Assembly (NCBI GenBank): GCA_001797365.1
Contig: MGPH01000028.1
Coordinates: forward strand, 5,687 to 69,686
Length of the DNA stretch: 64,000 nucleotides
Origin: Deltaproteobacteria bacterium GWA2_45_12
Lineage (GTDB): Bacteria; UBA10199
Direction of reading: 5' to 3'
Made by a program: the position numbers and the translations under genes. The notes beneath the pieces were generated by a model, which worked only from the letters and a program-made list of their open reading frames with translations, was not told the DNA's origin and did no database searches. How positions within the stretch are numbered: position 1 is the first letter of the stretch; each line of letters begins with the position of its first letter. Below, one piece after another: positions 1,627-45,991 of this stretch.

Positions 1627-2277
1627 ATGTCATCTTTTCAATCCCAATTCTTGGGACGAATTTCTTATGCCGAAGCTCTTGGGTTAATGCAAGAATTTAA
1701 AGCGAAGCGGCAGAATAACGAAATAGGGGACCAGATTCTCTTTTTGGAACACCAAGCTGTCGTCACCATGGGAAGAAAACCTTCCGAAAAAGATTTATAT
1801 CTTAAGAAAGAAGAGCTTCTTAAAAAAAATATCGATTTTGTCAAAACAGATCGGGGTGGCAAGCTTACTTACCATGGGCCTGGGCAGTTGGTGATTTATT
1901 TTGTTTTTGATATTCAAAAACGGGGATATTCCATTGAAGAGTGGGTTTGGAATGTGGAGGAAGGGGTCAGAAAGTTTTTGAGCGAGAAGGGAGTTGAGTG
2001 TGAGCGGGATGAGGATAATCCGGGGTTGTGGGTGAGGGCGGCTCACGAACCGCCCCTACAAAAAATTTGCTCCGTAGGATTTCATGTTTCTAAAGGGGTG
2101 ACAACCCATGGTGTGGCCCTGAATCTTGATTGTGATCTAACCCCTTTTGGTTATTTTTTACCGTGTGGTGTTGAAGGCAGAGGAATAACCAGTGTTTTAA
2201 AAGAGACAGGGAAAAAATTGTTCTTGGAAGAAGCCGCAAAAGAAATTGAAGGTATTTATCGGGGGTTGTTTACGTAG
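1627..2277 (+). CDS. lipB: lipoyl(octanoyl) transferase LipB
   Basis: RGGKLTYHGPGQLVIY motif and the KICSVG catalytic region are present. Contains the in-frame 25 nt palindromic element at 2036-2060. The stop TAG 2275-2277 lies inside a GTAGGGG repeat. Confidence 0.9.
   Translation: MSSFQSQFLGRISYAEALGLMQEFKAKRQNNEIGDQILFLEHQAVVTMGRKPSEKDLYLKKEELLKKNIDFVKTDRGGKLTYHGPGQLVIYFVFDIQKRGYSIEEWVWNVEEGVRKFLSEKGVECERDEDNPGLWVRAAHEPPLQKICSVGFHVSKGVTTHGVALNLDCDLTPFGYFLPCGVEGRGITSVLKETGKKLFLEEAAKEIEGIYRGLFT
2036..2060. repeat. Family-1 palindromic element gggcggctcacgaaccgcccctaca inside the lipB coding frame
   Basis: Near-identical copy at 45352-45377 (gggcggttcacgaaccgcccctaca). Encodes RAAHEPPLQ between the conserved LWV and KICSVG blocks of LipB. 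Confidence 0.8.
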
Positions 2278-2300
2278 GGGCGCCGCTTGCCGCGCCCCCC
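2274..2300. repeat. Family-1 half-site gtaggggcgccgcttgccgcgcccccc
   Basis: Same arm as at 13103-13126. Overlaps the lipB stop codon. Confidence 0.8.
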
Positions 2301-4585: not shown

Positions 4586-4711
4586 GAGGACTAAAACCCT
4601 CTACCCCCTGTTGTCCCCTCCTTCGACAGGCTCAGGACGGCGCTTACAAAGGGGGACAGAAGAATGAGTGAATCCCCTACAAAGAGGGACAGTTTTTAGT
4701 CTCCCCTCCTT

Positions 4712-4770
4712 TATAAGGAGGGGATTACCCATCATTCTCCCCTCCTTGTTAAGGAGGGGATTAAGGGGAG
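4712..4770. repeat. two tandem perfect palindromes TCCCCTCCTT-n3/4-AAGGAGGGGA
   Basis: Copies at 4712-4734 and 4748-4770. The arms resemble the anti-SD and SD sequences. They lie in the 5' leader of the epimerase gene and at the 3' end of the 4787 gene. Confidence 0.75.
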
Positions 4771-5265: not shown

Positions 5266-6120
5266 TTAGCCGACAATCTTCCCCATCCCCACAATCCCAT
5301 GGCATTTGGAATGTGTGGCAACAATAAATTTCGTAGGGGCGAGGTTTCCTCGCCCAAAACTCTTTTTCAATTTTCTCCATTCCTCCGCAATATTTTTTAA
5401 GGGGATGTAAGCCACGCCGTAAACCAATGCGGTGCAAAAAAAGGTGTGGATAGTTGTAGTTGGACCCTGAGCGGAGTGGGCCCTGAGCGGAGTCGAAGGG
5501 TTGAAGGGTCGCAGAACTTTCTTAAAATGTTCCCGAAAATCCCAAGTGCGTGGGGCTTGGGTGTGGGGGCAAATAGTGGGCTCGTCACAATCTAAGGGAC
5601 AGATCCAAGTTGCAAAACTTGTCGCTACAATTCCGGAATCGAAATTTTTTTGGTAGGGGGTGTTAAGGGATTGATTGTAAGGAATGATTTCTGTTTTAAA
5701 TCCTTCTTTCTCCAAGAGCTCTAAAAAAACCTTAAAAAAAACATGGGGGGCAGTGTGGTCGGGAATGAGGATGTCATTCTCATCAACGGTATAAACCCAA
5801 GGGCAAGCCTTGGAAGATTCTCCGCCTAAGGTGGAGGGTTTTGACCCGGCAAGGCGCGTCCCCGAAGCCAACGAGCGTAGGGGATCAAAACCCTGATTAA
5901 GAATATCGACGATAAATTGGGAATAAGATTTTTTAATGATTTGATTCGGATGTTTTTTTTCTGCCAGGGAATTTGGTTTGTCATCAACAAAGAACAGGGA
6001 TTTGAAATCGATAAGCCCTTCTTTTTTGGCCCTGATTAATTTTTGCCCGTAATCGAGCGAGAGTTTGTGGGTGCCGAGGATGTAAATAGAGTGAAGGGAG
6101 AACATTAGCCATTTCCTCAA
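5266..6120 (-). CDS. hypothetical Cys-containing protein; C-terminal portion is made of repeat-element sequence
   Basis: ORF of 284 aa. Two repeat elements (5333-5355, 5462-5510) fall in-frame in its C-terminal third. Confidence 0.45.
   Translation of the reverse strand: MRKWLMFSLHSIYILGTHKLSLDYGQKLIRAKKEGLIDFKSLFFVDDKPNSLAEKKHPNQIIKKSYSQFIVDILNQGFDPLRSLASGTRLAGSKPSTLGGESSKACPWVYTVDENDILIPDHTAPHVFFKVFLELLEKEGFKTEIIPYNQSLNTPYQKNFDSGIVATSFATWICPLDCDEPTICPHTQAPRTWDFREHFKKVLRPFNPSTPLRAHSAQGPTTTIHTFFCTALVYGVAYIPLKNIAEEWRKLKKSFGRGNLAPTKFIVATHSKCHGIVGMGKIVG
5333..5355. repeat. Family-1 element gtaggggcgaggtttcctcgccc
   Basis: gtaggggcg core with an internal hairpin. Confidence 0.7.
5462..5510. repeat. 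Family-2 tandem unit (ccctgagcggagtgggccctgagcggagtcgaaggg)
   Basis: Direct duplication of the cctgagcgg motif. Confidence 0.75.
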
Positions 6121-6200: not shown

Positions 6201-7646
6201 TCAACACCCCATCAATAATTCCGTCTCCCCCATTAAATATTTGTCAATCGACTTCGCACATTCCCGCCCTTCGGCGATGGCCCAGACGATGAGGGACTGG
6301 CCGCGCCGGGCGTCTCCTGCGGCAAAGATGCCGGGGACGGAAGACATTTTTGTTTCATCGGTTTTAATGTTGCCACGCGCATCAAGAACTAGGCCTGCTT
6401 CTTCGATGGCGCCTTTTTTTTCAGGCCCGACAAACCCCAAAGCCAAAAGGACAAGATCGGCCTCAAGCGAGAATTCACTTCCGGGGATTTCTTTAAACGA
6501 TGGGCGTTCAGAAGGGGAGGACGGCTTTATCCATTCAAGATGGACGCAATTAATTTTTTTAATGACACCATTTTCTCCTGAAAAGCTTTTGGTCAAAATG
6601 GAATATTCACGAGCCCCCCCTTCGTCGTGGGCCGGTGAAGTTCTGTAAACAAGGGGCCATTGGGGCCAGGGGTTGTCAAAATCACGTTCTTTGGGAGGTT
6701 GGGGCAAAAGTTCAATTTGATGAATCTGTTTGGCCCCTTGACGGTGGGCGGTTCCCAGACAATCAGCTCCTGTATCACCACCCCCAAGGATGATGACGTT
6801 TTTTCCATGGGCGGTAATTTGATTTTCAATTTTTTCTCCGGCATTCACCCGGTTTTGCTGGGTAAGATATTCCATGGCCGGATGAATGCCTTTAAGTTCG
6901 CGTCCGGGAAGGGGCAGATCACGCGCCTGGGTAGAACCCATGCACAGAGCAATGGCATGATAATCTTTTTGAAGAGCTTTAAACGGCATGGTCTTGCCAA
7001 TGGAAACACTTGTTTTGAAAACAACCCCTTCGGCCTCCATTTGCTTGATGCGTTGGTCAATACGCCATTTTTCCATTTTAAAATCGGGGATTCCATAACG
7101 GAGTAAACCCCCAATGCGGTCATCGCGTTCAAAGACAGTCACTTCATGACCCACGCGGGCCAATTGTTGCGCACAGGCAAGGCCGGCCGGGCCTGAGCCC
7201 ACAACAGCTACCTTTTTACTGGTTAATTTTTTTGCAGGCTGGGGTTTGACCCATCCACTTTTAAAAGCATGATCGATAATATTAAACTCGATATATTTAA
7301 TAGTGACGGGCGGTGCGTTAATTCCAAGTACACACGCCCCTTCGCATGGGGCCGGGCACAAGCGGCCGGTGAATTCAGGAAAATTATTGGTGGCATGCAA
7401 ACGGTCGATGGCGTCTTTCCAGCGGTTACGATAAACAAGATCATTCCAATCGGGGATCAAATTACCCAAAGGGCAGCCTTGATGACAAAAGGGGACGCCG
7501 CAGTCCATGCAACGGGCTCCCTGGCGCTTGATGGAGTCTTCCGGGAATTCCTTGTAGATTTCCTTGTAGTCGTGAACCCTTTCCTGAATGGAACGTTCAG
7601 GGGTGCCTTCACGAGGGTATTCCATAAAACCGGTAGGCTTACCCAT
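6201..7646 (-). CDS. gltD: glutamate synthase (NADPH) small subunit GltD
   Basis: N-terminal 4Fe-4S Cys clusters ([16 protein letters not shown]; [11 protein letters not shown]) and FAD/NAD(P) Rossmann motifs ([12 protein letters not shown]). Overlaps gltB by 8 nt. Confidence 0.9.
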
Positions 7647-10600
7647 ACATGGCCTCCCTTTCGGAAATTCCCAATTCCTTCATTTTTTTCCTGATTTCAA
7701 TGAGGGCCGTTTTGTAATCTCTTGGCATTACTTTTACAAATGAAGCCACTTCTTTATTGAAGTTGGCCAAAATTTTCTGAGCAGAAGTACTTTGCGTATA
7801 ATCAAAATGATTTTGAATAAGGTTTTTGAGGGTTAAAATATCATCCTCATCAACAACAGGGTCTAAATCCACCATGTCCGGATTGCAGTTTTGTTTGAAT
7901 GTCTTTTTTGGATCGTAAACATAAGCAACGCCTCCGCTCATGCCCGCAGCAAAATTGCGGCCGGTAGGTCCCAAAACAACCACGCGACCGCCGGTCATGT
8001 ATTCACAGGCATGGTCTCCCACGCCTTCAACCACGGTATGAGCCCCACTGTTACGAACACAAAAACGCTCCCCAGCCACCCCATAAAAATAGGCTTCTCC
8101 TTTGGTCGCTCCATAAAGGACTACATTACCTATGAGGATGTTCTTTTCAGGAACAAAAGGGGATTTTTTGGATGGGTAGATGATGATTTTTCCTCCAGAA
8201 AGCCCTTTACCAACATAATCATTGGCATCGCCTTCCAAGGTAAGAGTGATTCCGGAAGGGAGAAAAGCCCCAAAACTTTGACCAGCCGAACCATTAAACT
8301 TAATAGAGATGGTATCTTCCGGTAACCCATTACTTCCATGAAGACCTGTCAACTCACTTCCTAACATAGTGCCCGTGGTACGGTTGGTATTGTTGATGGG
8401 CATTTCAAAAGCCACTTTCTTCTTGTTTGACAGGGCCGCTCGCGATTTTTCAATTAAAACATTGTCCAAGACTTTGTTCATGCCATGATCTTGCCGGGTA
8501 ACACATCGGATAGCAACTTCAGGTCCAATCTTTTGCTTGTAGAAAATTGATGAAAAATCGAGTCCTTTAGCTTTCCAATGCTCAAGGGCACCATCAACAT
8601 CAAGCAGATCGCTTCTGCCAATCATTTCATTTAAGGTTCTAAACCCAAGTCCGGCCATGATTTCGCGCAATTCCTGGGCGACAAAATAGAAAAAATTCAC
8701 CACGTATTCAGGTTTTCCTGTAAATTTTTTGCGAAGCTCGGGGTTTTGGGTGGCCACACCAACGGGGCAGGTATCCAAGTGACAAACACGCATCATAATG
8801 CACCCCACCGTCACCAGCGGAGCTGTTGCAAATCCAAATTCTTCAGCCCCCAGAAGCGCCCCGATGGCCACATCGCGACCGGTTTTTAATTGGCCATCGA
8901 CTTCCACCCGGATGCGATCACGCAAATTGTTGCGAACTAGGGTTTGCTGGGTCTCAGCCAGGCCCAGTTCCCACGGTGTGCCCGCATGTTTAATGCTTGT
9001 TAAAGGAGAAGCCCCCGTTCCTCCGTCATAACCGGCGATAAGAACAAGGTCGGCGTGCGCTTTGGCCACACCGGCAGCCACCGTGCCCACGCCCACTTCG
9101 GAAACCAGTTTGACACTGACACCGGCCCTTGGATTAGAATTTTTTAAATCAAAAATAAGCTGGGCCAAATCCTCAATGGAATAAATATCGTGATGGGGTG
9201 GGGGAGAAATAAGCCCGACTCCAGGAGTTGAATAACGAACTTTTGCAATCCAAGGCCATACTTTTTTACCCGGAAGCTGACCGCCTTCGCCGGGTTTGGC
9301 TCCCTGGGCAATCTTAATCTGCAGCTCATCGGCATTGACTAGATATTCGCTTGTTACTCCAAAACGTCCAGAAGCCACCTGTTTAATGGCACTGCGCCGG
9401 AGATCACCATTGGCATCGGGTTTAAAGCGAGCAGGGTCCTCACCACCTTCCCCGGTATTTGATTTGCCGCCCATGCGGTTCATGGCGATGGCCAATGTTT
9501 CGTGGGCTTCTTTACTGATGGAACCATAGGACATGGCTCCTGTTTTGAAATGTTTGACGATACTTTCAACCGATTCAACTTGGTCTAAGGCAATGGGATT
9601 GGATTTCTTGAATTTAAAAAGCCCGCGTAAAGTACATAATTTTTTGGCCTGGTTATTAACCAGGGCGGCATATTCCTTGTACACGTCATAGCGGTTGGAC
9701 TTGGCGGCATATTGAAGCTTGGCCACGGTATCCGGATTTAACAAATGGGCTTCCCCGTCACGCCGCCATTGATAGCTTCCCCCCGGTTCAAGCATGGGGT
9801 CCTGTGAAAGGCGTTCGGGGAAGGCGCGACGATGGTTTATAAGCACTTCACGGCCTATTTCTTCCAACCCGATTCCTTCAATGCGGGAAGCTGTGTGGGT
9901 AAAATAGTCATCAATGACTTCCTTGTTTAATCCGATGGCTTCAAATATTTGGGCCCCGCGATAACTTTGAATTGTGGAAATGCCCATTTTGGACATCACC
10001 TTGACCAACCCTTTTTTGACCGCTTTTCGGAAATGGGCCACCGCTTTCTCGTGGGGCATTTCCAATGTTTTTTCACGAATAAGATCATCAAATGTTTCAA
10101 ACGCCAAATAGGGGTTGATCGCTCCGGCCCCGTAACCGACCAACAGACAGAAATGATGGGATTCGCGCGGTTCCCCTGTTTCCAGTACAAGGCCTGTTTT
10201 GGTTCGCTCGCCCTTACGCACAAGAAAATGATGCAATCCGGCTGTAGCCAAAAGGGATGGAATGGGAGCCAAGTCGTGACTCACACCACGGTCGGACAAA
10301 ATGATGATGTTGGCCCCTTGATGAATGGCTTGCAGGGCCTGTTTGAAAATATTCTGAAGACTTTTTTCCAGCCCTTTGACTCCTTCAGAGGCCGTAAACA
10401 GCATGGGAATGGTTTTTGACTTGAACCCCTGATGCTCATTGTCTTCAAGTTGTTTGAGGCGTGCCAGTTCGTCGTTGTCGATGATGGGATTGACCAGTTT
10501 TATTTGATGACAGCTTTGCTCGCCCGGATTGAGCAAATTACCCTCGGCCCCAATGCTTGTGTCCACCGAAGTGACCAATTCTTCACGGATGGCATCAAGG

Positions 10601-12293: not shown

Positions 12294-13100
12294 TCAAGGC
12301 AATTTTTCAGATTTCTCCGTTTTTTTACGGTGCAATACCCAAAAAAGAGGAAGCGCGATCCAGGCAAGATCGGCCAAGGCCAGGAACCATTGGCGAAGGA
12401 AAAGAGTGATCAGCCAATTGAACGCAAAAATTCCGAAATATAAATAAACACCGTAGGGGCGCTGCTTGCTGCGCCCATCATACGGCAAATTGCGGGCGCA
12501 GCAAGCAGCGCCCCTACACAAAAGAATATTTATTCCCACAATCAAGAACGCCGTTAAAAACCAACCGGCAAAATTGAAGAAGGGGATGCCAAAATAAAAA
12601 CCGGGATGGGGGTAGTGGTAAATCTTTCCCAAAAACCATTGTTCTCCCATGTTGGATAAAGGATCGACAATGATATCGAGAATGGTGGTGAAAAGGGCGG
12701 CGAGGAGGGGAAGACGTAGCTCGTGAGTTCGTAAGCTCGTCGCTCGTCGCTCGTCATTCGGGGTCCCCGTATTACGAGCAACGAGCAACGAGCGACGAGC
12801 AACGAACTCCGCCACACTATACCCCGCAAAACAAAGAAAGACATAAGACATCGAATCCCAAACGGGGACACCCCAATTAAGCCATTCCCCTTGAAGGTTT
12901 TCATAAATATAAAAATACCATCCATAGGGAAAACCGGTTCGAATCGAAAGCCCTTCAGAAATCCATGCGATGAAATAACCGACAATCAAAAACTGAAACG
13001 TAAAACGCCACCCGTGACTGCGTATGGCAATGAAAAGATAAGTGAGTAAAAAAAGAGTGACATACCACCGGTGCGAGAATGTGTAGAAAAGAATATCCAT
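12294..13100 (-). CDS. polytopic membrane protein (DUF422/carotenoid-associated-like?) carrying two in-frame palindromic insertions
   Basis: Multiple TM helices on both sides of the insertions. The insertions encode VAEFVARRSLLVARNTGTPNDERRATSLRTHELR and [25 protein letters not shown]. Confidence 0.55.
   Translation of the reverse strand: MDILFYTFSHRWYVTLFLLTYLFIAIRSHGWRFTFQFLIVGYFIAWISEGLSIRTGFPYGWYFYIYENLQGEWLNWGVPVWDSMSYVFLCFAGYSVAEFVARRSLLVARNTGTPNDERRATSLRTHELRLPLLAALFTTILDIIVDPLSNMGEQWFLGKIYHYPHPGFYFGIPFFNFAGWFLTAFLIVGINILLCRGAACCARNLPYDGRSKQRPYGVYLYFGIFAFNWLITLFLRQWFLALADLAWIALPLFWVLHRKKTEKSEKLP
12453..12517. repeat. Family-1 inverted pair gtaggggcgctgcttgctgcgccc ... gggcgcagcaagcagcgcccctac
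   Basis: 24 bp arms around a 17 nt spacer. Lies inside the 12294..13100 coding frame. Confidence 0.85.
12725..12808. repeat. long imperfect palindrome centred on ggggtcccc with gctcgtc/gacgagc heptad arms
   Basis: Sequence gctcgtcgctcgtcgctcgtcattcggggtccccgtattacgagcaacgagcaacgagcgacgagc. Lies in-frame in the membrane protein. Confidence 0.75.
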
Positions 13101-13102
13101 TT

Positions 13103-13168
13103 TGTAGGGGCGCCGCTTGCCGCGCCCATTATTGGAAAAACATTAGGGCGCGGCAAGCAGCGCCCCTA
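13103..13168. repeat. Family-1 inverted pair gtaggggcgccgcttgccgcgccc ... gggcgcggcaagcagcgcccctac
   Basis: Lies between the membrane protein start and the epimerase 3' end. Supplies the last 8 codons and the stop of the epimerase. Confidence 0.85.
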
Positions 13169-14162
13169 CGGTATATTGTTTCACCTGAATTTTTAGGGCC
13201 TCATCAATGGAATGACAGGAAAACCCCAATTCGTTTTTAGCCTTGGTGGTATCCATATAAAAAGGAATCCTGACAGAACGTATTCCTTCAAGAGTTCCCA
13301 AGGGAGTGTTGCCGGTAAATAAAGCCAGTTTTTCCATAAGTCCACTTGTAAGGCAGGCCAACCCATACGGAATTTTAAAACCCAATCTGGCTTGATGGGA
13401 ATTGGCCGCCACTTTCTTGTAAAAGATTTCAAAGCTTAGATTGGGGCCCCCCAAGATATACCGATGGCCCCTTAACCCGTCTTGCATGGCTTGAAGATGA
13501 CCTTTCACCAAGCTGCGCACATCCACCATGTTAAACCCGGTGGGGTAATAAAAACGCCCCATTTTTTTTTGAAGAATCATCCGGATGAGAAATCCCACAG
13601 GGCTTGGCAAAAAATCTCCGGGGCCCACGGGCATGGTGGGGTTTACAATGACGGCATGACGTTTCTGGGCATATTCCAAAACTATTTTTTCTGCGGCAAT
13701 TTTGCTTCGGGTATAAGGGCCGGGAGCATTGCTTTCTTCCAGAAGATGGTTTTCGGAAGCAGTGGGGTTTTGGTTGGTTCTTTTCAGAACTTCAGAAGAG
13801 CTTGTATGAACCAAGCCTTCAACATGATGTTTTAAGCAGGCATCACAGACATGTTGGGTCCCCTTGATGTTGATTTCTTCATGGTCTTTTCTTCGTTTTG
13901 TCCCCAAATGACTCAAGGCTGCCAAATGAAAAACATGGGAGGCTCCGGAAACAGCCTTGGACACATCGTTTTTGTTTCGAATGTCCCCCAAAAAAATTTC
14001 CAGACGATTACTTGCCAAAATAGGGTTTCCATTTTCAGGGTGGCGTAAAGGATCCGAGGGCAACATAAAAGCCCTAATGCGACTTTGGGTTGATTTGAGA
14101 AGATGAAGAATGAGATTGGAGCCGATAAAACCGCTGGCCCCCGTGACAAGGATGAGTTTCAT
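13143..14162 (-). CDS. NAD-dependent epimerase/dehydratase (3-beta-HSD / HpnA-like sugar epimerase family)
   Basis: MKLILVTGASGFIGSNLILHLL Rossmann start and the YxxxK region. Start ATG 14160-14162 overlaps the upstream stop (ATGA coupling). Confidence 0.8.
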   Translation of the reverse strand: MKLILVTGASGFIGSNLILHLLKSTQSRIRAFMLPSDPLRHPENGNPILASNRLEIFLGDIRNKNDVSKAVSGASHVFHLAALSHLGTKRRKDHEEINIKGTQHVCDACLKHHVEGLVHTSSSEVLKRTNQNPTASENHLLEESNAPGPYTRSKIAAEKIVLEYAQKRHAVIVNPTMPVGPGDFLPSPVGFLIRMILQKKMGRFYYPTGFNMVDVRSLVKGHLQAMQDGLRGHRYILGGPNLSFEIFYKKVAANSHQARLGFKIPYGLACLTSGLMEKLALFTGNTPLGTLEGIRSVRIPFYMDTTKAKNELGFSCHSIDEALKIQVKQYTVGALLAAP

Positions 14163-16326: not shown

Positions 16327-16363
16327 CTATTAATGACAGATCCGGGAACAAATCCCCCTTAAT

Positions 16364-16425
16364 CCCCCTTTTTTAAAGGGGGAGAAAACATGGGGCCCGT
16401 ATCGTCCCCCTTTAAAAAAGGGGGA
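16364..16425. repeat. pair of C5-T/A-G5 hairpins (ccccctttttt aaaggggg; tcccccttt aaaaaaggggga)
   Basis: Mirror arrangement between the EF-hand gene and tRNA-Pro. Confidence 0.5.
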
Positions 16426-16520
16426 TTCCAGGGGGATTTTACCCGAATCCATACCTTTTGCTTGACGAAAGAGAGCCTCATCCGTTATCTGTTTCCCCCC
16501 TTTGTTTTTGATTTTTTTTG

Positions 16521-16595
16521 CGGGGCGTAGCGCAGCCCGGCTAGCGCACTCCCTTGGGGTGGGAGTGGTCGCAGGTTCAAATCCTGTCGCCCCGA
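16521..16595 (+). tRNA. tRNA-Pro(GGG): tRNA-Pro (anticodon GGG)
   Basis: Acceptor stem CGGGGCG/CGCCCCG, anticodon stem CTCCC/GGGAG with loop TTGGGGT, and a TTCAAAT T-loop. No encoded CCA. Confidence 0.85.
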
Positions 16596-18807: not shown

Positions 18808-18814
18808 ATATTTT

Positions 18815-18862
18815 GGTCCCTGAGCGAAGTCGAAGGGACGGTGTGCTTCGACTCCGCTCAGC
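18815..18862. repeat. Family-2 repeat immediately 5' of lipA
   Basis: Sequence ggtccctgagcgaagtcgaagggacggtgtgcttcgactccgctcagc. Confidence 0.8.
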
Positions 18863-18875
18863 AACCGAAAGCATT

Positions 18876-19739
18876 ATGCAACCCTTACTCAAACCCCCAT
18901 GGCTTAAAAAACGCCTGGACGTTGCCGCCCTGACAGGCATGCAGGCCAGGTTGCGTGGCCTCACCCTGCATTCAGTATGCGAAGAAGCGCGTTGCCCCAA
19001 TATTTCCGAATGCTTTTCCAAGGGTGTGGCCACCGTCATGATCATGGGCGATACCTGCACGCGCGCTTGCAAGTTTTGTGCAGTGGCCACGGGCCGTCCC
19101 AAACCCCTTGATCCAAATGAACCGGAAAATGTCGCCAAATGGGCGGGGGATGCGGGTTTGAAACACATTGTGATTACGTCGGTGGATCGGGACGATCTGC
19201 CCGACTTGGGGGCCACCCATTTTGGAAAAACCGTTCAAACGATGAAAGAAATCCATCCTTTGATGATTGTGGAAGTGCTTACCCCCGATTTTCAGGGGAA
19301 AGGGGAGCTCATCGACAAAGTTTGCCAGGCAGAACCAAAAATTTACAATCACAACCTGGAAACTGTTCGCCGGCTTACGCCCGGGGTTCGTTCTGCGGCC
19401 AGGTATGATCGTTCCCTTCAGGTGATAAAATGGGTCAAAAAAAATTATCCAAATCAATTGACCAAGTCGGGTCTCATGCTGGGCTTGGGCGAAACCGAGG
19501 AAGAAATTCTGGAATCGATGCAGGATCTTTTAAACCATGGCTGCGACATGCTCACCCTGGGTCAATACCTTCAACCCACCTTGAAACATCTTCCCGTTAA
19601 AGAATACATTCCCCTTGAAAAGTTCGAAGGATACCACAAACGCGGTCTTCAAATGGGCTTCAAAGCCGTTTTTGCCGGCCCCTTTGTACGCTCTTCCTAT
19701 CTGGCCGATGAGCTTTATGAACAAACGTTTTCGGTTTGA
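18876..19739 (+). CDS. lipA: lipoyl synthase LipA
   Basis: CEEARCPNISEC and CTRACKFC clusters. Start at ATG 18876; the ORF tool extension MVPERSRRDGV.. is translated repeat. Confidence 0.95.
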   Translation: MQPLLKPPWLKKRLDVAALTGMQARLRGLTLHSVCEEARCPNISECFSKGVATVMIMGDTCTRACKFCAVATGRPKPLDPNEPENVAKWAGDAGLKHIVITSVDRDDLPDLGATHFGKTVQTMKEIHPLMIVEVLTPDFQGKGELIDKVCQAEPKIYNHNLETVRRLTPGVRSAARYDRSLQVIKWVKKNYPNQLTKSGLMLGLGETEEEILESMQDLLNHGCDMLTLGQYLQPTLKHLPVKEYIPLEKFEGYHKRGLQMGFKAVFAGPFVRSSYLADELYEQTFSV

Positions 19740-24902: not shown

Positions 24903-24968
24903 GGTCCCTGAGCGAAGTGGTCCCCGAGCGGAGTCGAGGGGTCGAAGGGACACCTCGACTCCGCTCGG
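24903..24968. repeat. Family-2 repeat between etfB and etfA
   Basis: Sequence ggtccctgagcgaagtggtccccgagcggagtcgaggggtcgaagggacacctcgactccgctcgg. Confidence 0.8.
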
Positions 24969-24994
24969 TGACCACCCCTAAAGAGGAGAAAATC

Positions 24995-25983: not shown

Positions 25984-26901
25984 ATGAATGATCCAAGTTT
26001 TGAGGTTTTTAGGGAGGCTCTCTTGCACGAAAAGCAAGCTTCCCCCCATACGGTTAAAAACTACCTCCATGATCTCAAAGAGTTTTGGGGATACCTGCAT
26101 CAATTCAGTCCAGAATGTATAAATAATAAAAAACTTGAACTAAATAAAGTTAACCCATTAATACTAAGGGGGTTTTTATCTTTTATATTTCAAGGGAAAA
26201 GTCCTGCTACTGTAGCGCGAAAACTTTCGACTTTGCGAACTTTCTTTCATTTTTGGGTTAAAAGAGGTGTTTTAAGCCAGAACCCGGCCAAGGCGATTTC
26301 ATCCCCAAAAATTCCCAAAAAATTGCCCCGTTTTTTAAATGTGGATGAAATTTTTGCCCTTTTAGATATTGCGGTAACCGACGATTTTCAGGGAAGACGG
26401 GATTGTGCCATCTTGGAATTACTTTATTCATCGGGCTTACGCGTTAGTGAACTGGTGGGGCTGGATGAAACCTGTGTTGATTTGGAAAACAGGTTGGTTA
26501 AAGTCTTGGGAAAGGGACGCAAAGAGCGTATTGTGCCCGTGGGGAAAAAAGCCATTGAAAAACTGAAAATCTACTTGGAAAAACGGGATAAAGTATTGGC
26601 CCAATTAAAAACGACAAACAAAACATCGTCTGTTTTTTTAAATCGTAGGGGCGAGCGTCTGAATGTAAGGAGTGTTCAACGTTTGGTGAGGCAGGCTTTA
26701 GTCAGATCGGGGTTGGGTAAAGAAATATCGCCCCATGGCTTACGGCACACTTTTGCCACCCATTTATTGAATGCCGGGGCCGATTTGCGGTCCATTCAAG
26801 AACTCTTGGGGCATGCAAATTTGTCAACCACCCAAAAATATACCCATGTCAATGTGGAACAATTGATGAAGGTGTATGATTCGGCGCATCCAAAGGCATG
26901 A
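25984..26901 (+). CDS. xerC: tyrosine recombinase XerC
   Basis: HGLRHTFATHLL..LGHANLSTTQKYTHV catalytic box. Classical xerC-hslV-hslU synteny. Confidence 0.9.
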   Translation: MNDPSFEVFREALLHEKQASPHTVKNYLHDLKEFWGYLHQFSPECINNKKLELNKVNPLILRGFLSFIFQGKSPATVARKLSTLRTFFHFWVKRGVLSQNPAKAISSPKIPKKLPRFLNVDEIFALLDIAVTDDFQGRRDCAILELLYSSGLRVSELVGLDETCVDLENRLVKVLGKGRKERIVPVGKKAIEKLKIYLEKRDKVLAQLKTTNKTSSVFLNRRGERLNVRSVQRLVRQALVRSGLGKEISPHGLRHTFATHLLNAGADLRSIQELLGHANLSTTQKYTHVNVEQLMKVYDSAHPKA

Positions 26902-26925: not shown

Positions 26926-27000
26926 GTAGGGGCGAACCTTGCCTGCCCGCCTCAGGAGGGTATTCGCCCTGAAATGGGCGATCACAAGGATCGCCCCTAC
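26926..27000. repeat. Family-1 MITE-like element with 10 bp TIR (gtaggggcga / tcgcccctac)
   Basis: Lies between xerC and hslV. Confidence 0.75.
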
Positions 27001-31344: not shown

Positions 31345-32235
31345 ATGAAACATTGTCTTACATTAAAAAATTTGGGGGCCGAAACCATTTTATCCATTTT
31401 GGATAGAGCCCTTTATTTCAAAAAAAATCGTCAGCCACTGACTCTTTTAAATGGGAAGGTGTTGGGACTTATCTTTGAAAAAGAATCAACGCGTACGCGT
31501 ATTTCATTTGAGGTAGCCATGGGAAGGCTGGGGGGCACCAGTATTTATCTCAGCCAGTCTTCAAGCCAGATTTCCCGTGGGGAAACCTATGCGGATACCG
31601 CCCGGGTTTTATCGCGTTATCTGGATGCCCTTGTTTTGCGTGCTTATTCCCAGGCCGATCTGGAAGAATTGGCAAGCCATGCTTCCATTCCTGTGATTAA
31701 TGGATTAACCGATGACGCCCATCCTTGTCAGGTGCTTGCCGATCTTATGACCATCCTGGAGAAAAAAGGGAAATGGGATGATTTGAAAATCGCCTACATT
31801 GGTGATGGCAACAATATGACAAACACCTGGATTGAAGCGGCCCTGTTATTGAATTTTAATCTTCACGTGGCCTGTCCCAAGGGATATGGGCCTTCCAAAG
31901 AACTTGTTTCTAGTGTTAAAGGAATTGAGTCCATTGGATTAACATCTAAACCGCTTGAGGCGGTGGCTCATGCCGATGTAATCAATACGGACACTTGGTT
32001 TTCAATGGGGCAAAAGGTTTCCCAGGCAAAAAGAAAAAAATTCAAGGGGTTTCAGATCAACCGGGCCCTGCTTCAAAAAGCGAGTCCCGATGTCATTGTG
32101 CTTCACTGCCTGCCGGCCCATCGCGGAGAAGAAATAACTGATGAGGTTTTAGATGGCCCCCATTCTGTGGTTTTTGATGAGGCGGAAAACAGGCTGTATG
32201 TGCAAATGGCTTTGTTGGAATATTTGTTAACGTAG
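31345..32235 (+). CDS. argF: ornithine carbamoyltransferase
   Basis: STRTRISFE and HCLP motifs. The stop TAG is again inside a gTAGggg repeat. Confidence 0.9.
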
Positions 32236-32255
32236 GGGCGCTGCTTGCTGCGCCC
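32233..32255. repeat. Family-1 half-site gtaggggcgctgcttgctgcgccc
   Basis: Identical to the arm at 12453-12476. Confidence 0.8.
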
Positions 32256-32275: not shown

Positions 32276-33481
32276 ATGACAAAAAAAATCAAAAAAGTAG
32301 TTCTCGCTTACTCTGGTGGTTTGGATACTTCCGTCATTTTAAGATGGCTTATCGAGACATATCAGTGCGAGGTTGTCTGTTTTGCGGCTGATTTGGGGCA
32401 GGGAGAAGAGTTGGACCATCTGGATGAAAAAGCCAAAAAGACGGGTGCTTCCAAAATTTATATTGATGATCTTCGGGAAGAGTTTGTGCGGGACTTTGTT
32501 TTTCCTATGTTGCGTGCGAATACGGTTTATGAAGGCAGTTATTTGTTGGGAACTTCCATTGCCCGTCCTTTAATTGCCAAACGTCAGATTGAAATTGCCC
32601 TAAAAGAAGGTTGTGATGCCGTTTCCCACGGGGCCACAGGCAAGGGCAATGATCAGGTGCGTTTTGAACTTACTTACTACGCCTTAAAGCCGGACATTCA
32701 TGTGATTGCCCCCTGGCGCGAGTGGTCCCTTGATTCACGTCAGTCCCTCCTTGATTATGCGGCCAAGCACGGCATCCCTGTGCCCGTCACACCCAAAAAA
32801 CCTTACAGCTCTGACCGTAATTTGTTGCACATCAGTTTTGAAGGAGGAATTTTGGAAGACCCCTGGAAGGCGCCCCCTGATGATATGTTCCTCCTTTCGG
32901 TTTCTCCTGAAGACGCCCCTGACAAGCCCGAGATTATTGAAATCGACTATGAAAAAGGAAACCCTGTTGCGGTCAATGGTGAAAAATTGAGCCCGGCTAT
33001 GTTGCTTGCCAAATTAAACATGCTTGGTGGCAAACATGGAATAGGCCGTGTGGATCTTGTTGAAAACCGTTTTGTGGGCATGAAAAGCCGTGGCGTTTAT
33101 GAAACTCCGGGCGGTTCCATTTTACATGTGGCTCACCGCGCTGTTGAGTCGCTGACCATGGACCGCGAAGTCTTGCATTTAAGGGATGGTCTCATCCCTA
33201 AATATTCCGAGCTTGTTTATTACGGCTTTTGGTATGCCCCCGAACGCGAACTTCTCCAAAACCTGATTGATGACTCACAATCAAACGTCACAGGCACGGC
33301 GCGTTTGAAACTTTATAAGGGTAATATCACTGTGTTGGGCCGAAAGGCAAAGGCCAGTCTTTTTAACCAGGAAATTGCCACTTTTGAAAAAGACACCGTC
33401 TACAACCAAAAAGATGCCGAGGGCTTCATCAAATTGAATGCCCTTCGCTTGCGTATTCGTAAAATGGTTGGGATTTCATAA
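32276..33481 (+). CDS. argG: argininosuccinate synthase
   Basis: [13 protein letters not shown]-loop. Confidence 0.95.
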
Positions 33482-33491
33482 AAAATGTTAT

Positions 33492-33552
33492 GGTTCGACG
33501 GAGCTCACCATGTCCGATATAAGGACACCCTGAGCTTGTCGAAGGGTTGATC
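33492..33552. repeat. short MITE derivative (both terminal modules back to back)
   Basis: Sequence ggttcgacggagctcaccatgtcc ... ggacaccctgagcttgtcgaaggg. Confidence 0.6.
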
Positions 33553-44451: not shown

Positions 44452-45329
44452 TGCTCTCACCAGAACTTCTCAAAAAAATCGAGAACATTGTGATTAAAAG
44501 CCGTTATTTGGCCAACGAAATGTTTTCGGGCGAATATAAAACGGCTTTCCGCGGCCGGGGCATGGAATTCGAAGAGGTCAGGGAATACATTCCCGGAGAT
44601 GATGTGCGCTTGATTGACTGGAATGTTTCAGCCCGCATGGATAAGCCCTTTATTAAAGTCCATCGGGAAGAAAGAGAGCAGGCTGTCATGTTGGTAGTTG
44701 ATTTATCACAAAGCCTTTATTTCGGATCAAAAAAAAGATTGAAAAGAGAAGCGGTTGCCGAATTAGCGGCTGTTCTTGCCCGTGCCGCCACCAACAGCAA
44801 TGACAAAGTGGGCCTCATTTTATTTTCCGACCGGGTTGAATATTATCTGCCCCCCCGCAAAGGAAAAAGCCATGTCTGGCAAGTAGTCAAGAGCATTCTG
44901 ACCCATAAACCCATCGGGCAAAAAACAAATCTTGAAGGCGCACTTCATTTTTTAAGCAGGGTGGTCCATCGGCGCTGTGTTTGTTTTGTTATTTCTGATT
45001 TTTTGACGGAAGGCTTTGAAAGCGTGCTTAAAGCGGTTTCGCGCAGATACGATGTTGTTAATTTCATCATGCGTGACCCTTTGGAATTAAATTGGCCCGG
45101 GAAATCATTTGTGAACCTGAAAAGTGCCGAAGAAGAGGGGGTTTCCTTGGGCCAAAACATGGGAGGCAAAAACATAAGGAAATTTAATGAGTATCAAAAA
45201 TTGAGTATCCAAAATCTTACAGCACAATTCCAGGGCATGAATATGGATGCCCTTTTTCTAAAAACAAATGAAGATTACATCGATACCCTGATACGATTTT
45301 TTCGTTTTAGAGATAAAAGGAGAAATTAA
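44448..45329 (+). CDS. DUF58 (vWA-like) protein, MoxR partner
   Basis: 4 nt overlap with MoxR; DUF58 architecture. Confidence 0.8.
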   Translation: MMLSPELLKKIENIVIKSRYLANEMFSGEYKTAFRGRGMEFEEVREYIPGDDVRLIDWNVSARMDKPFIKVHREEREQAVMLVVDLSQSLYFGSKKRLKREAVAELAAVLARAATNSNDKVGLILFSDRVEYYLPPRKGKSHVWQVVKSILTHKPIGQKTNLEGALHFLSRVVHRRCVCFVISDFLTEGFESVLKAVSRRYDVVNFIMRDPLELNWPGKSFVNLKSAEEEGVSLGQNMGGKNIRKFNEYQKLSIQNLTAQFQGMNMDALFLKTNEDYIDTLIRFFRFRDKRRN

Positions 45330-45351
45330 GCATACCTCGTGTACCCGTGTA

Positions 45352-45377
45352 AGGGCGGTTCACGAACCGCCCCTACA
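45352..45377. repeat. Family-1 element gggcggttcacgaaccgcccctaca
   Basis: Same element as inside lipB. Its 3' end abuts the ATG at 45377. Confidence 0.8.
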
Positions 45378-45991
45378 TGGGGCACTCGCCATTTATTATG
45401 GAAGACATCCCCCAATCATCTGAGAGCATGAAAGATATTCTGGATATCGAGAATATTGTCCTGTTTTTATGGCCAAAAGTGCTGCTCTTTGTATTTGGAA
45501 TTCTGGCTCTGCTTCTTTCTATTTTTTTAATCATAAAGATTTTTCAATTTTTAAAAAACCGCAAAAAAAAAATCCTCTCCCTTTCACCCTTGGAACAATC
45601 TTTAAAAAGACTTTCCAAAATTGGCATTAATTTGCTGATTAACTCCCCCCAACCCCCTCTTAAGCTAAGAGGGGGCAAGGGGGAGTTATGTCACTCTGTA
45701 TATTTTGAGCTGTCTGAAATTTTACGAGAATACCTTGATCGGGCTTATTCATTTCCTGCCATGGAAAAATCAACGAGCGAAATCAAAGAATTGTTTATAA
45801 CAAACAAGCCCATCGCGCTATCAAATGAAATCATTGGTGAGCTCGTTTCATTTTTCGAAAAGGCAGACCAAATAAAATTTGCAGGCCAACCCAGTGACAA
45901 TGAAGGTATTAAGGTGGATATGGAAAAAATTAAAAATATAATCATTTGTCTGGATGGCTTATTAAAAAAAGACATTTCCAAACATTCATGA
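45377..45991 (+). CDS. DUF4381-like membrane protein of the Bat operon (true start possibly 45398)
   Basis: N-terminal TM helix. Occupies the position between DUF58 and BatA. Contains an in-frame repeat at 45650-45683. Confidence 0.5.
   Translation: MGHSPFIMEDIPQSSESMKDILDIENIVLFLWPKVLLFVFGILALLLSIFLIIKIFQFLKNRKKKILSLSPLEQSLKRLSKIGINLLINSPQPPLKLRGGKGELCHSVYFELSEILREYLDRAYSFPAMEKSTSEIKELFITNKPIALSNEIIGELVSFFEKADQIKFAGQPSDNEGIKVDMEKIKNIIICLDGLLKKDISKHS
45650..45683. repeat. hairpin element aaccccctcttaagctaagagggggcaaggggg (inside coding frame)
   Basis: Intergenic copy at 54724-54757. Confidence 0.75.

Follow-up and report, generated by a model that had tools for sequence, protein, structure and literature searches.

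The 64 kb window analysed here (the whole stretch of DNA, at its full length) carries the gene lipB, in which a short palindromic element is embedded, together with a family of related elements and the gene of the LipB pathway partner LipA. The features to which the text refers are the following (a dot stands where no strand is assigned; REP, repetitive extragenic palindrome):

1627..2277, + strand, lipB (octanoyl/lipoyl transferase), 216 aa, carrier of the insert, Pfam LplA-B_cat
2032..2059, strand ".", intragenic A-type REP, GTGA-GGGCGGCT-CACG-AACCGCCC-CTAC
2274..2297, + strand, B-type REP GTAGGGGCGCCGCTTGCCGCGCCC, between the convergent lipB and acyltransferase genes
5333..5356, + strand, REP unit GTAGGGGCGAGGTTTCCTCGCCC, in frame near the C-terminus of ORF 5266-6105 (-)
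12453..12517, strand ".", inverted B-type REP doublet, REPIN-like, in frame in a Caroten_synth-family gene
13104..13169, strand ".", inverted B-type REP doublet, second arm 13146-13169
18876..19739, + strand, lipA (lipoyl synthase), pathway partner of LipB, LIAS_N and Radical_SAM domains
26926..27000, strand ".", intergenic inverted REP doublet, between xerC/D-like and hslV-like genes
32232..32255, + strand, B-type REP, its head overlapping the end of the ornithine carbamoyltransferase gene
45349..45376, strand ".", intergenic A-type REP, near-perfect 28-nt palindrome GTAAGGGCGGTTCACGAACCGCCCCTAC

The lipB ORF starts with an ATG at 1627 and ends with a stop codon at 2275-2277. Its product matched Pfam LplA-B_cat (PF21948) with E = 7.8e-37 and was 100% identical to the annotated LipB of 'Deltaproteobacteria bacterium GWA2_45_12', a groundwater MAG. 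A preliminary description of this DNA had reported a 25 nt element, GGGCGGCTCACGAACCGCCCCTACA, at 2036-2060 (+) within lipB, and both the coordinates and the letters proved exact. The same description had stated that the element does not break the LipB reading frame and this was borne out, the ORF 1627-2277 being intact and the frame remaining open across the element (TGG GTG AGG GCG GCT CAC GAA CCG CCC CTA CAA AAA ATT), which is translated as W V R A A H E P P L Q K I in the context ...GLWV RAAHEPPLQ KICSVG... (peptide across the insert, ...WVRAAHEPPLQK...).

The segment 2036-2060 constitutes the core of a REP that spans 2032..2059 and encodes the residues V-RAAHEPPL. The minus strand of this REP reads GTAGGGGCGGTTCGTGAGCCGCCC, that is, GTAG-GGGCGGTT-CGTG-AGCCGCCC, with a stem of 8 positions and a loop of 4 nt. 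The GTAG tag thus sits at one end of the palindrome (minus strand, GTAG followed by GGGCGGTTCGTGAGCCGCCC), next to a 20 nt core with the stem GGGCGG../..CCGCCC. A search of the window for the 25-mer, allowing up to 3 mismatches, returned a sole other copy, at 45353-45377, which differs at a single position (T for C at the 7th base), and no match arose in 100 dinucleotide-preserving shuffles. This second copy lies between a DUF58 gene (end at 45329) and an ORF with an abutting ATG at 45377. The near-identical intergenic copy announced in the preliminary description was therefore real, with its start at 45353 instead of 45352. The intergenic A-type REP 45349..45376 folds at -25.2 kcal/mol (z = -5.3) and the lipB REP at -14.7 kcal/mol with a 6-bp stem, the hairpin of the latter being weakened by one C.A stem mismatch and by the degeneration of one of its two heads (GTGA). 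The mismatch corresponds to GCT (Ala) in lipB versus GTT (Val) in the 45353 copy. Given the weaker hairpin, the C.A mismatch and the GTGA head, the lipB copy is consistent with a REP now evolving as coding sequence.

The window contains 12 occurrences of the head GTAGGGGCG, where 0.15 would be expected, and 10 hairpin units with GGGCG...CGCCC stems were found, all 10 of them with GTAG/CTAC. Two types could be told apart by their interior: the A type (GGTTCGTGARCC) comprises the lipB copy and the 45353 copy, and the B type (GCYGCTTGCYGC) comprises 2274, 12453/12517, 13104/13169 and 32232, while the units at 5333 and in the hairpin unit of the 26926/27000 doublet have other stems. Three pairs form inverted doublets (12453-12517, 13104-13169 and 26926-27000), with arm complementarity of up to 100%. 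One further occurrence of GTAGGGGCG, at 26645, was rejected as a REP and taken as a chance 9-mer, as it lies in the xerC/D-like gene, forms no hairpin and is normal integrase coding sequence. An Rfam search found no family for the hairpins, its sole match being a tRNA at 16521-16595.

Half of the hairpin units in the window (5/10) overlap coding sequence, and they do so in several ways. The stop codon of lipB itself (2275-2277) is the TAG of the GTAG head of the REP 2274..2297, which starts one base earlier, and the TAG stop (32233-32235) of the ornithine carbamoyltransferase gene argF (31345-32235) likewise comes from the GTAG head of the REP 32232..32255. The REP 13146-13169 forms the C-terminal tail VGALLAAP* of the NAD-epimerase gene (stop at 13143). 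The doublet 12453-12517, whose arms are 100% complementary and which folds at -58.5 kcal/mol, is translated as CRGAACCAR...GRSKQRPY by the gene of a Caroten_synth-family membrane protein (12294-13100, -), and the REP 5333-5356 is translated as FGRGNLAPT in a linker of ORF 5266-6105. Neither of the last two cases could be accepted as a discrete insertion: the loop that contains the Caroten_synth doublet is hypervariable across the family and shows no clean gap, and the linker that matches FGRGNLAPT differs in length by up to 7 residues among homologues. The suggestion in the preliminary description of a genome-wide phenomenon of in-frame repeats holds insofar as other repeats are also translated in frame, over the scope of the 64 kb window.

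Several other palindromic repeats share the window with the REPs. A structured repeat of ~110 nt at 5782-5889 in ORF 5266-6105 (minus strand) folds at -45 kcal/mol and adds ~30 aa, LRSLASGTRLAGSKPSTLGGESSKACPWVYTV, in frame to the protein; most homologues lack this insert. An inverted copy, 88% identical, lies outside the window, in the intergenic spacer immediately upstream (L121, 5229-5339), and in size the repeat is nearer to an RPE (Rickettsia palindromic element) or a MITE than the lipB element is. A GCTCGT-rich palindrome at 12734-12808, with the arms GCTCGTCGCTCGTCGCTCGT / ACGAGCAACGAGCGACGAGC, belongs to a repeat family separate from the REPs and is read in frame in the Caroten_synth-family protein as EFVARRSLLVAR...RATSL; the loop that contains it is hypervariable across the family, and no discrete gap was callable there. 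A C/G-run palindrome at 45640-45688 (TAACTCCCCCCAACCCCCTCTTA / TAAGAGGGGGCAAGGGGGAGTTA) is located in ORF 45377-45991, in a BatA/BatD-type operon, where it is translated as ...PPLKLRGGKGEL..., and similar palindromes are present at 4702-4760 and 16339-16449. Palindromes of the 'GAGCGGAGTCGAGGG / CTTCGACTCCGCTC' type occur at 18811-18870 in the recG-lipA spacer, at 24917-24975 and, after argG, at 33487-33545; that at 24917-24975 coincides with the annotated ETF-alpha start, a GTG at 24917 that has probably been placed too far upstream.

The LipB protein was aligned with 38 homologues of 36-57% identity (n=39). The stretch from GLWV to K-I-x-S-x-G measured 9 residues in this LipB and 3 in 38/38 homologues, with a net gain of +6 aa, or +18 nt. 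These results bear out the statement in the preliminary description that other LipB proteins have few residues at this site, and the gap expected there at the element was present in all 38 homologues, at a net 18 nt. The 8-9 added residues (RAAHEPPLQ) of that description need to be reduced: 9 residues are present, compared with 3 in the homologues, and the net addition is 6. The insert is located in a beta-hairpin turn and ends one residue before the invariant K146. All 21 invariant columns of the 39-protein alignment are retained in this LipB, including K146 (K-I-x-S-x-G) and C180 (P-C-G), which align with the corresponding motifs of the solved structures 1w66 and 2qht and which, from established LipB biochemistry, we take to be the catalytic residues of the active site. 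The solved LipB proteins show a gap of 6 aa (T. thermophilus, 2qht) or 3 aa (M. tuberculosis, 1w66) at the insert site. Among the best 120 LipB hits, the loop had 3 residues in 100 and 7-9 residues in 12 more distant ones, so that a turn of 9 residues falls within the natural range.

The lipB site was also compared as DNA in four relatives (L126, L127, L128 and L129), at least two of them clearly syntenic. L126 and L127 have the full flanking order found here, namely ECH (enoyl-CoA hydratase)(-), lipB(+), acyltransferase(-) and epimerase(-), and L128 and L129 share the ECH(-)/lipB(+) part of it with the window. The site was uninterrupted in 4/4 of these relatives (for example, TGG ATT GGT CTT CAA AAA). 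L129 does contain GTAG REPs with the same head, including a unit identical to the window 27000(-) unit, GTAGGGGCGATCCTTGTGATCGCCC, and its lipB site is empty. The closest LipB relative in the databases searched has ~57% identity, and because none exceeds that value, neither the sequence of the site before the insertion nor the precise limits of the insert can be reconstructed. An identical LipB protein was encoded on 4 contigs; two of these, from independent ENA assemblies, carried 1-3 SNPs relative to the window, all of them outside lipB. As the same allele recurs in independent assemblies with SNPs elsewhere, the insert allele is not an assembly artefact. Flank-anchored patterns for the empty and the filled lipB alleles gave 0 matches in JGI metagenome contigs, the filled allele included, and hence say nothing about strain polymorphism, and a 98-nt absence in the assembly DNQF01000128 at window positions 33397-33494 proved to be merely an 'NN' scaffold gap.

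Two observations had been named in the preliminary description as incompatible with an insertion: the same extra residues in relatives, and an element unique to lipB. The extra residues were missing from the 38 aligned homologues and from the 4 orthologue DNAs, and the element has its copy at 45353 as well as the 10 hairpin units in the window. With neither observation made, the insertion reading stands, and the central claim of an in-frame insertion of a dispersed palindromic repeat into a conserved gene is upheld by syntenic orthologues without the extra residues.

As to the identity of the element, its sequence features make it a GTAG-tagged REP and not a Rickettsia RPE. RPE-1 elements are roughly 100-150 bp long. 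The lipB element, by contrast, has 24-28 nt, is GTAG-tagged and is common to many non-rickettsial phyla. The likeness to RPEs drawn in the preliminary description is sound as regards behaviour, namely in-frame insertion into a conserved gene (here with a net +6 aa and with the frame and the invariant residues kept), and has to be dropped as regards the element. RPEs are described as palindromic repeats lying in frame in protein-coding genes that are probably still functional, and the short ones among them, RPE-4 and RPE-6, are classed with the CGTC-tagged REPs and not with the GTAG superfamily (PMC3733652). GTAG REPs were catalogued by Di Nocera, De Gregorio & Rocco (2013, BMC Genomics 14:522; PMC3733652), who found them to be commonest in Opitutus terrae. 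According to that work they are palindromes of 20-40 bp, occurring as single units or inverted dimers, mostly downstream of ORFs or between convergent ORFs; GTAG and CGTC REPs also lie wholly within ORFs of known function, where dimers encode 20-30 residues, the TAG of the GTAG tag serves as a stop codon, and intragenic inserts are argued to occupy tolerant loops (PMC3733652). All these traits (short palindrome, GTAG tag, dimers, location, units in ORFs and TAG stops) were matched here. The present case differs from the published ones in its host, an uncultivated 'Deltaproteobacteria' MAG, in its target, lipB, in that the insert abuts a catalytic residue, and in the 5/10 window units that overlap coding sequence. 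Neither the REP sequence of the lipB element nor lipB was found in the text supplementary files of PMC3733652. The lipB case is therefore a new example of an event already published for intragenic GTAG REPs, and what is notable in it is mainly the clean orthologue evidence and the position beside a catalytic residue. The elements also resemble those of the REP/REPIN-RAYT systems of Escherichia, Pseudomonas and Stenotrophomonas, in which a GTAG head likewise lies 5' of a G+C-rich hairpin and inverted doublets are formed; they differ in that no RAYT was located here in the window or in the part of the contig that adjoins it.

Taken as a whole, we regard it as likely that a REP copy became embedded in frame in lipB with a net +18 nt, turning a 3-residue turn into a 9-residue loop, that the insert is tolerated, and that it arrived by a RAYT-type route. 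The GTAG-tagged REP is embedded in an orientation and a frame that contain no stop codon, is read as protein, and makes a 9-residue loop of the 3-residue beta-turn before K146. The insert would have survived since the turn tolerates added length and LipB presumably still works, and the copy would since have been decaying as a REP, as its GTGA head and C.A mismatch suggest. For the arrival itself, the literature points to a RAYT/TnpA-REP HUH tyrosine transposase that would cut and join single-stranded hairpins; alternatively, the copy may have come by recombination with another REP copy. Elsewhere in the window, other genes owe stop codons, C-terminal tails and stretches of loop to the same repeat family. 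Stop-free reading is offered by 3/6 of the orientation and frame combinations of the A unit, and hence an open, frame-preserving insertion would not be rare once selection had removed the others. In vitro, cleavage by TnpA-REP (RAYT) requires the GTAG motif (PMC8266576). Neither the Pfam lists of called genes nor tblastn with an E. coli RAYT query revealed a RAYT gene in the window or in the contig stretch next to it, and RAYT mobilisation is for this reason drawn from the literature. Across all the loci fetched, the same tblastn search matched only L018 and a fragment in L078, and no transposases were present among the REP-flanked ORFs in other loci. The L018 match (7440-7993; Thermodesulfobacteriota MAG) is a RAYT-like gene (7601-7993; E = 1e-28 with the E. 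coli query) that has a pair of different REPs (TAGGGCGGCCCGTGGCCGCC type) just upstream and a B-type unit 4.8 kb away.

Transposition of the hairpin is not the sole way in which the palindrome could have come to lie in lipB. It might have grown in place, or arisen by microhomology, template switching or gene conversion, from native codons that looked like a REP head, the seed being W-V-G-A encoded as TGG GTA GGG GCN, which contains GTAGGGGC. One orthologue, that of L127 (10415-10432), has just such a stretch, TGG GTA GGG GCT CAA AAA, with 8/9 bases of the head GTAGGGGCG; these native codons spelling GTAGGGGC may be a landing-pad mimic or a coincidence. The look-alike, however, is present in 1/4 of the orthologue DNAs, and two particular synonymous codons suffice to create it. 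A net 18 nt falls short of a whole unit, which would be expected had native bases provided one end; since no simple unit (20, 24 or 28 nt) has this length, the insertion must have replaced native bases or used some of them again. Nor is a target-site duplication visible at the lipB insert, as in-place growth would have it, but HUH-type transposition of the IS200/IS605 type leaves no target-site duplication either, and the missing duplication thus does not discriminate. Against growth in place stands also the stem-loop interior, (near-)identical to that of the 45353 copy and of units in other phyla, which argues for a pre-existing REP source and not for de novo origin. We consider this origin unlikely. 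Far less probable, to the point of being nearly negligible, is that the extra residues are an ordinary lineage-specific LipB loop with a chance likeness to a repeat, or else an assembly chimera. Loop length in the LipB family does vary from 3 to 9 residues, but the ~35 closest homologues are all short-looped, the element matches a second locus at 24/25 nt with 0/100 shuffles doing so, it has the GTAG head and stem of the family, and independent assemblies share the allele although SNPs separate them elsewhere. On these grounds this explanation was set aside as effectively refuted.

With the transposed REP as the preferred reading, the question is whether the modified LipB is functional. The AF2 model of this LipB was predicted with high confidence (pLDDT 95.7, pTM 0.92) and superimposed on the T. 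thermophilus LipB 2qhs with a TM of 0.90 and an rmsd of 1.5 A, and on 1w66 with a TM of 0.89. Residues 137-144 (local pLDDT ~89) were modelled as a loop that joins the strands 131-136 and 145-155. The presence of lipA in the window suggests that the LipB-LipA route is in use. The insert might nonetheless have inactivated LipB, leaving an intact-looking, recently disabled pseudogene, with lipoylation ensured by another route such as an LplA-type ligase. Its end lies one residue from the invariant K146, and the sampled strains are nearly identical, perhaps leaving too little time for further decay. Against this, the ORF is intact with every invariant residue kept, the predicted fold is confident and places the insert in an exposed hairpin turn, natural LipB proteins have loops of 7-9 residues at the same position, lipA is retained, and the REP copy has already diverged (degenerate head, stem mismatch), which suggests that the insertion is not brand-new. 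Inactivation thus appears improbable, slightly more so than growth in place. Considering the invariant residues kept, the confident LipB model, the natural loops of 7-9 aa, the presence of lipA and the same allele in independent assemblies, the insert is probably tolerated and the modelled LipB probably still works.

The A and B consensus sequences were also scanned against one genome per GTDB species, and at least 120 loci were obtained, where ~1 match of the A/B pattern would be expected by chance in this collection, as estimated from information content. Among the matches listed, the hosts represented ~20 major lineages by MAG label, including Acidobacteriota, Chloroflexota, Armatimonadota, several proteobacterial orders, Planctomycetota, Patescibacteria and Omnitrophota, with host G+C ranging from 37 to 74%. 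Also among the matches listed, identical 24-mers recurred at least 60 times for GTAGGGGCGCTGCTTGCTGCGCCC and at least 14 times for GTAGGGGCGGTTCGTGAACCGCCC, and conservation was confined to the unit, stopping at its edges, with unrelated flanks (L001-L120). Units were carried as well by IMG/VR viral contigs (70 stretches, L130-L199), and lay in frame in Pfam-verified genes of several phyla, namely those of a radical-SAM protein, Wzy_C, a peptidase M16 and an NRPS. In a Chloroflexi MAG (JAKAMA010000243.1; L057, 2300-2610), seven tandem 54-nt units each contain a B-type REP; with 5 exact matches at the 54-nt period, inside long ORFs of a contig of 74% G+C, this array may represent a tandem repeat that derives from a REP and is coding. 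REPINs have been described as vertically inherited (10.1101/2021.07.10.451892) and lineage-specific (10.1101/2024.10.14.618302, which also reports vertical inheritance), and the spread of the 24-mers across phyla and viruses is accordingly unexpected; the window's 24-mers differ from REPINs precisely in being identical across many phyla and in viral contigs. It is conceivable, though we put it forward as a tentative and rather doubtful proposal, that the units GTAGGGGCGGTTCGTGAACCGCCC and GTAGGGGCGCTGCTTGCTGCGCCC constitute a cosmopolitan element which passes from phylum to phylum, perhaps with phages, instead of descending only vertically, and which repeatedly writes loops of 6-10 residues into conserved proteins, maybe targeting GTAGGGGC-like codons.

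The lipB insert represents selfish hairpin DNA turned into protein sequence beside the catalytic lysine of a small, well-understood enzyme, accommodated in the predicted fold without visible harm, and it can serve as a natural experiment on how loops tolerate added length and on repeat-made variation of protein length. It also brings a caveat for annotation in this lineage, where repeats have in part written the ends of genes (as two stop codons) and the C-terminal tails and some loops of proteins. As the phenomenon has already been published for GTAG REPs, lipB provides one more example of it and no new principle. The 24-mers shared across phyla and with viruses may be worth more, for they bear on the strict vertical inheritance of REP/RAYT systems.
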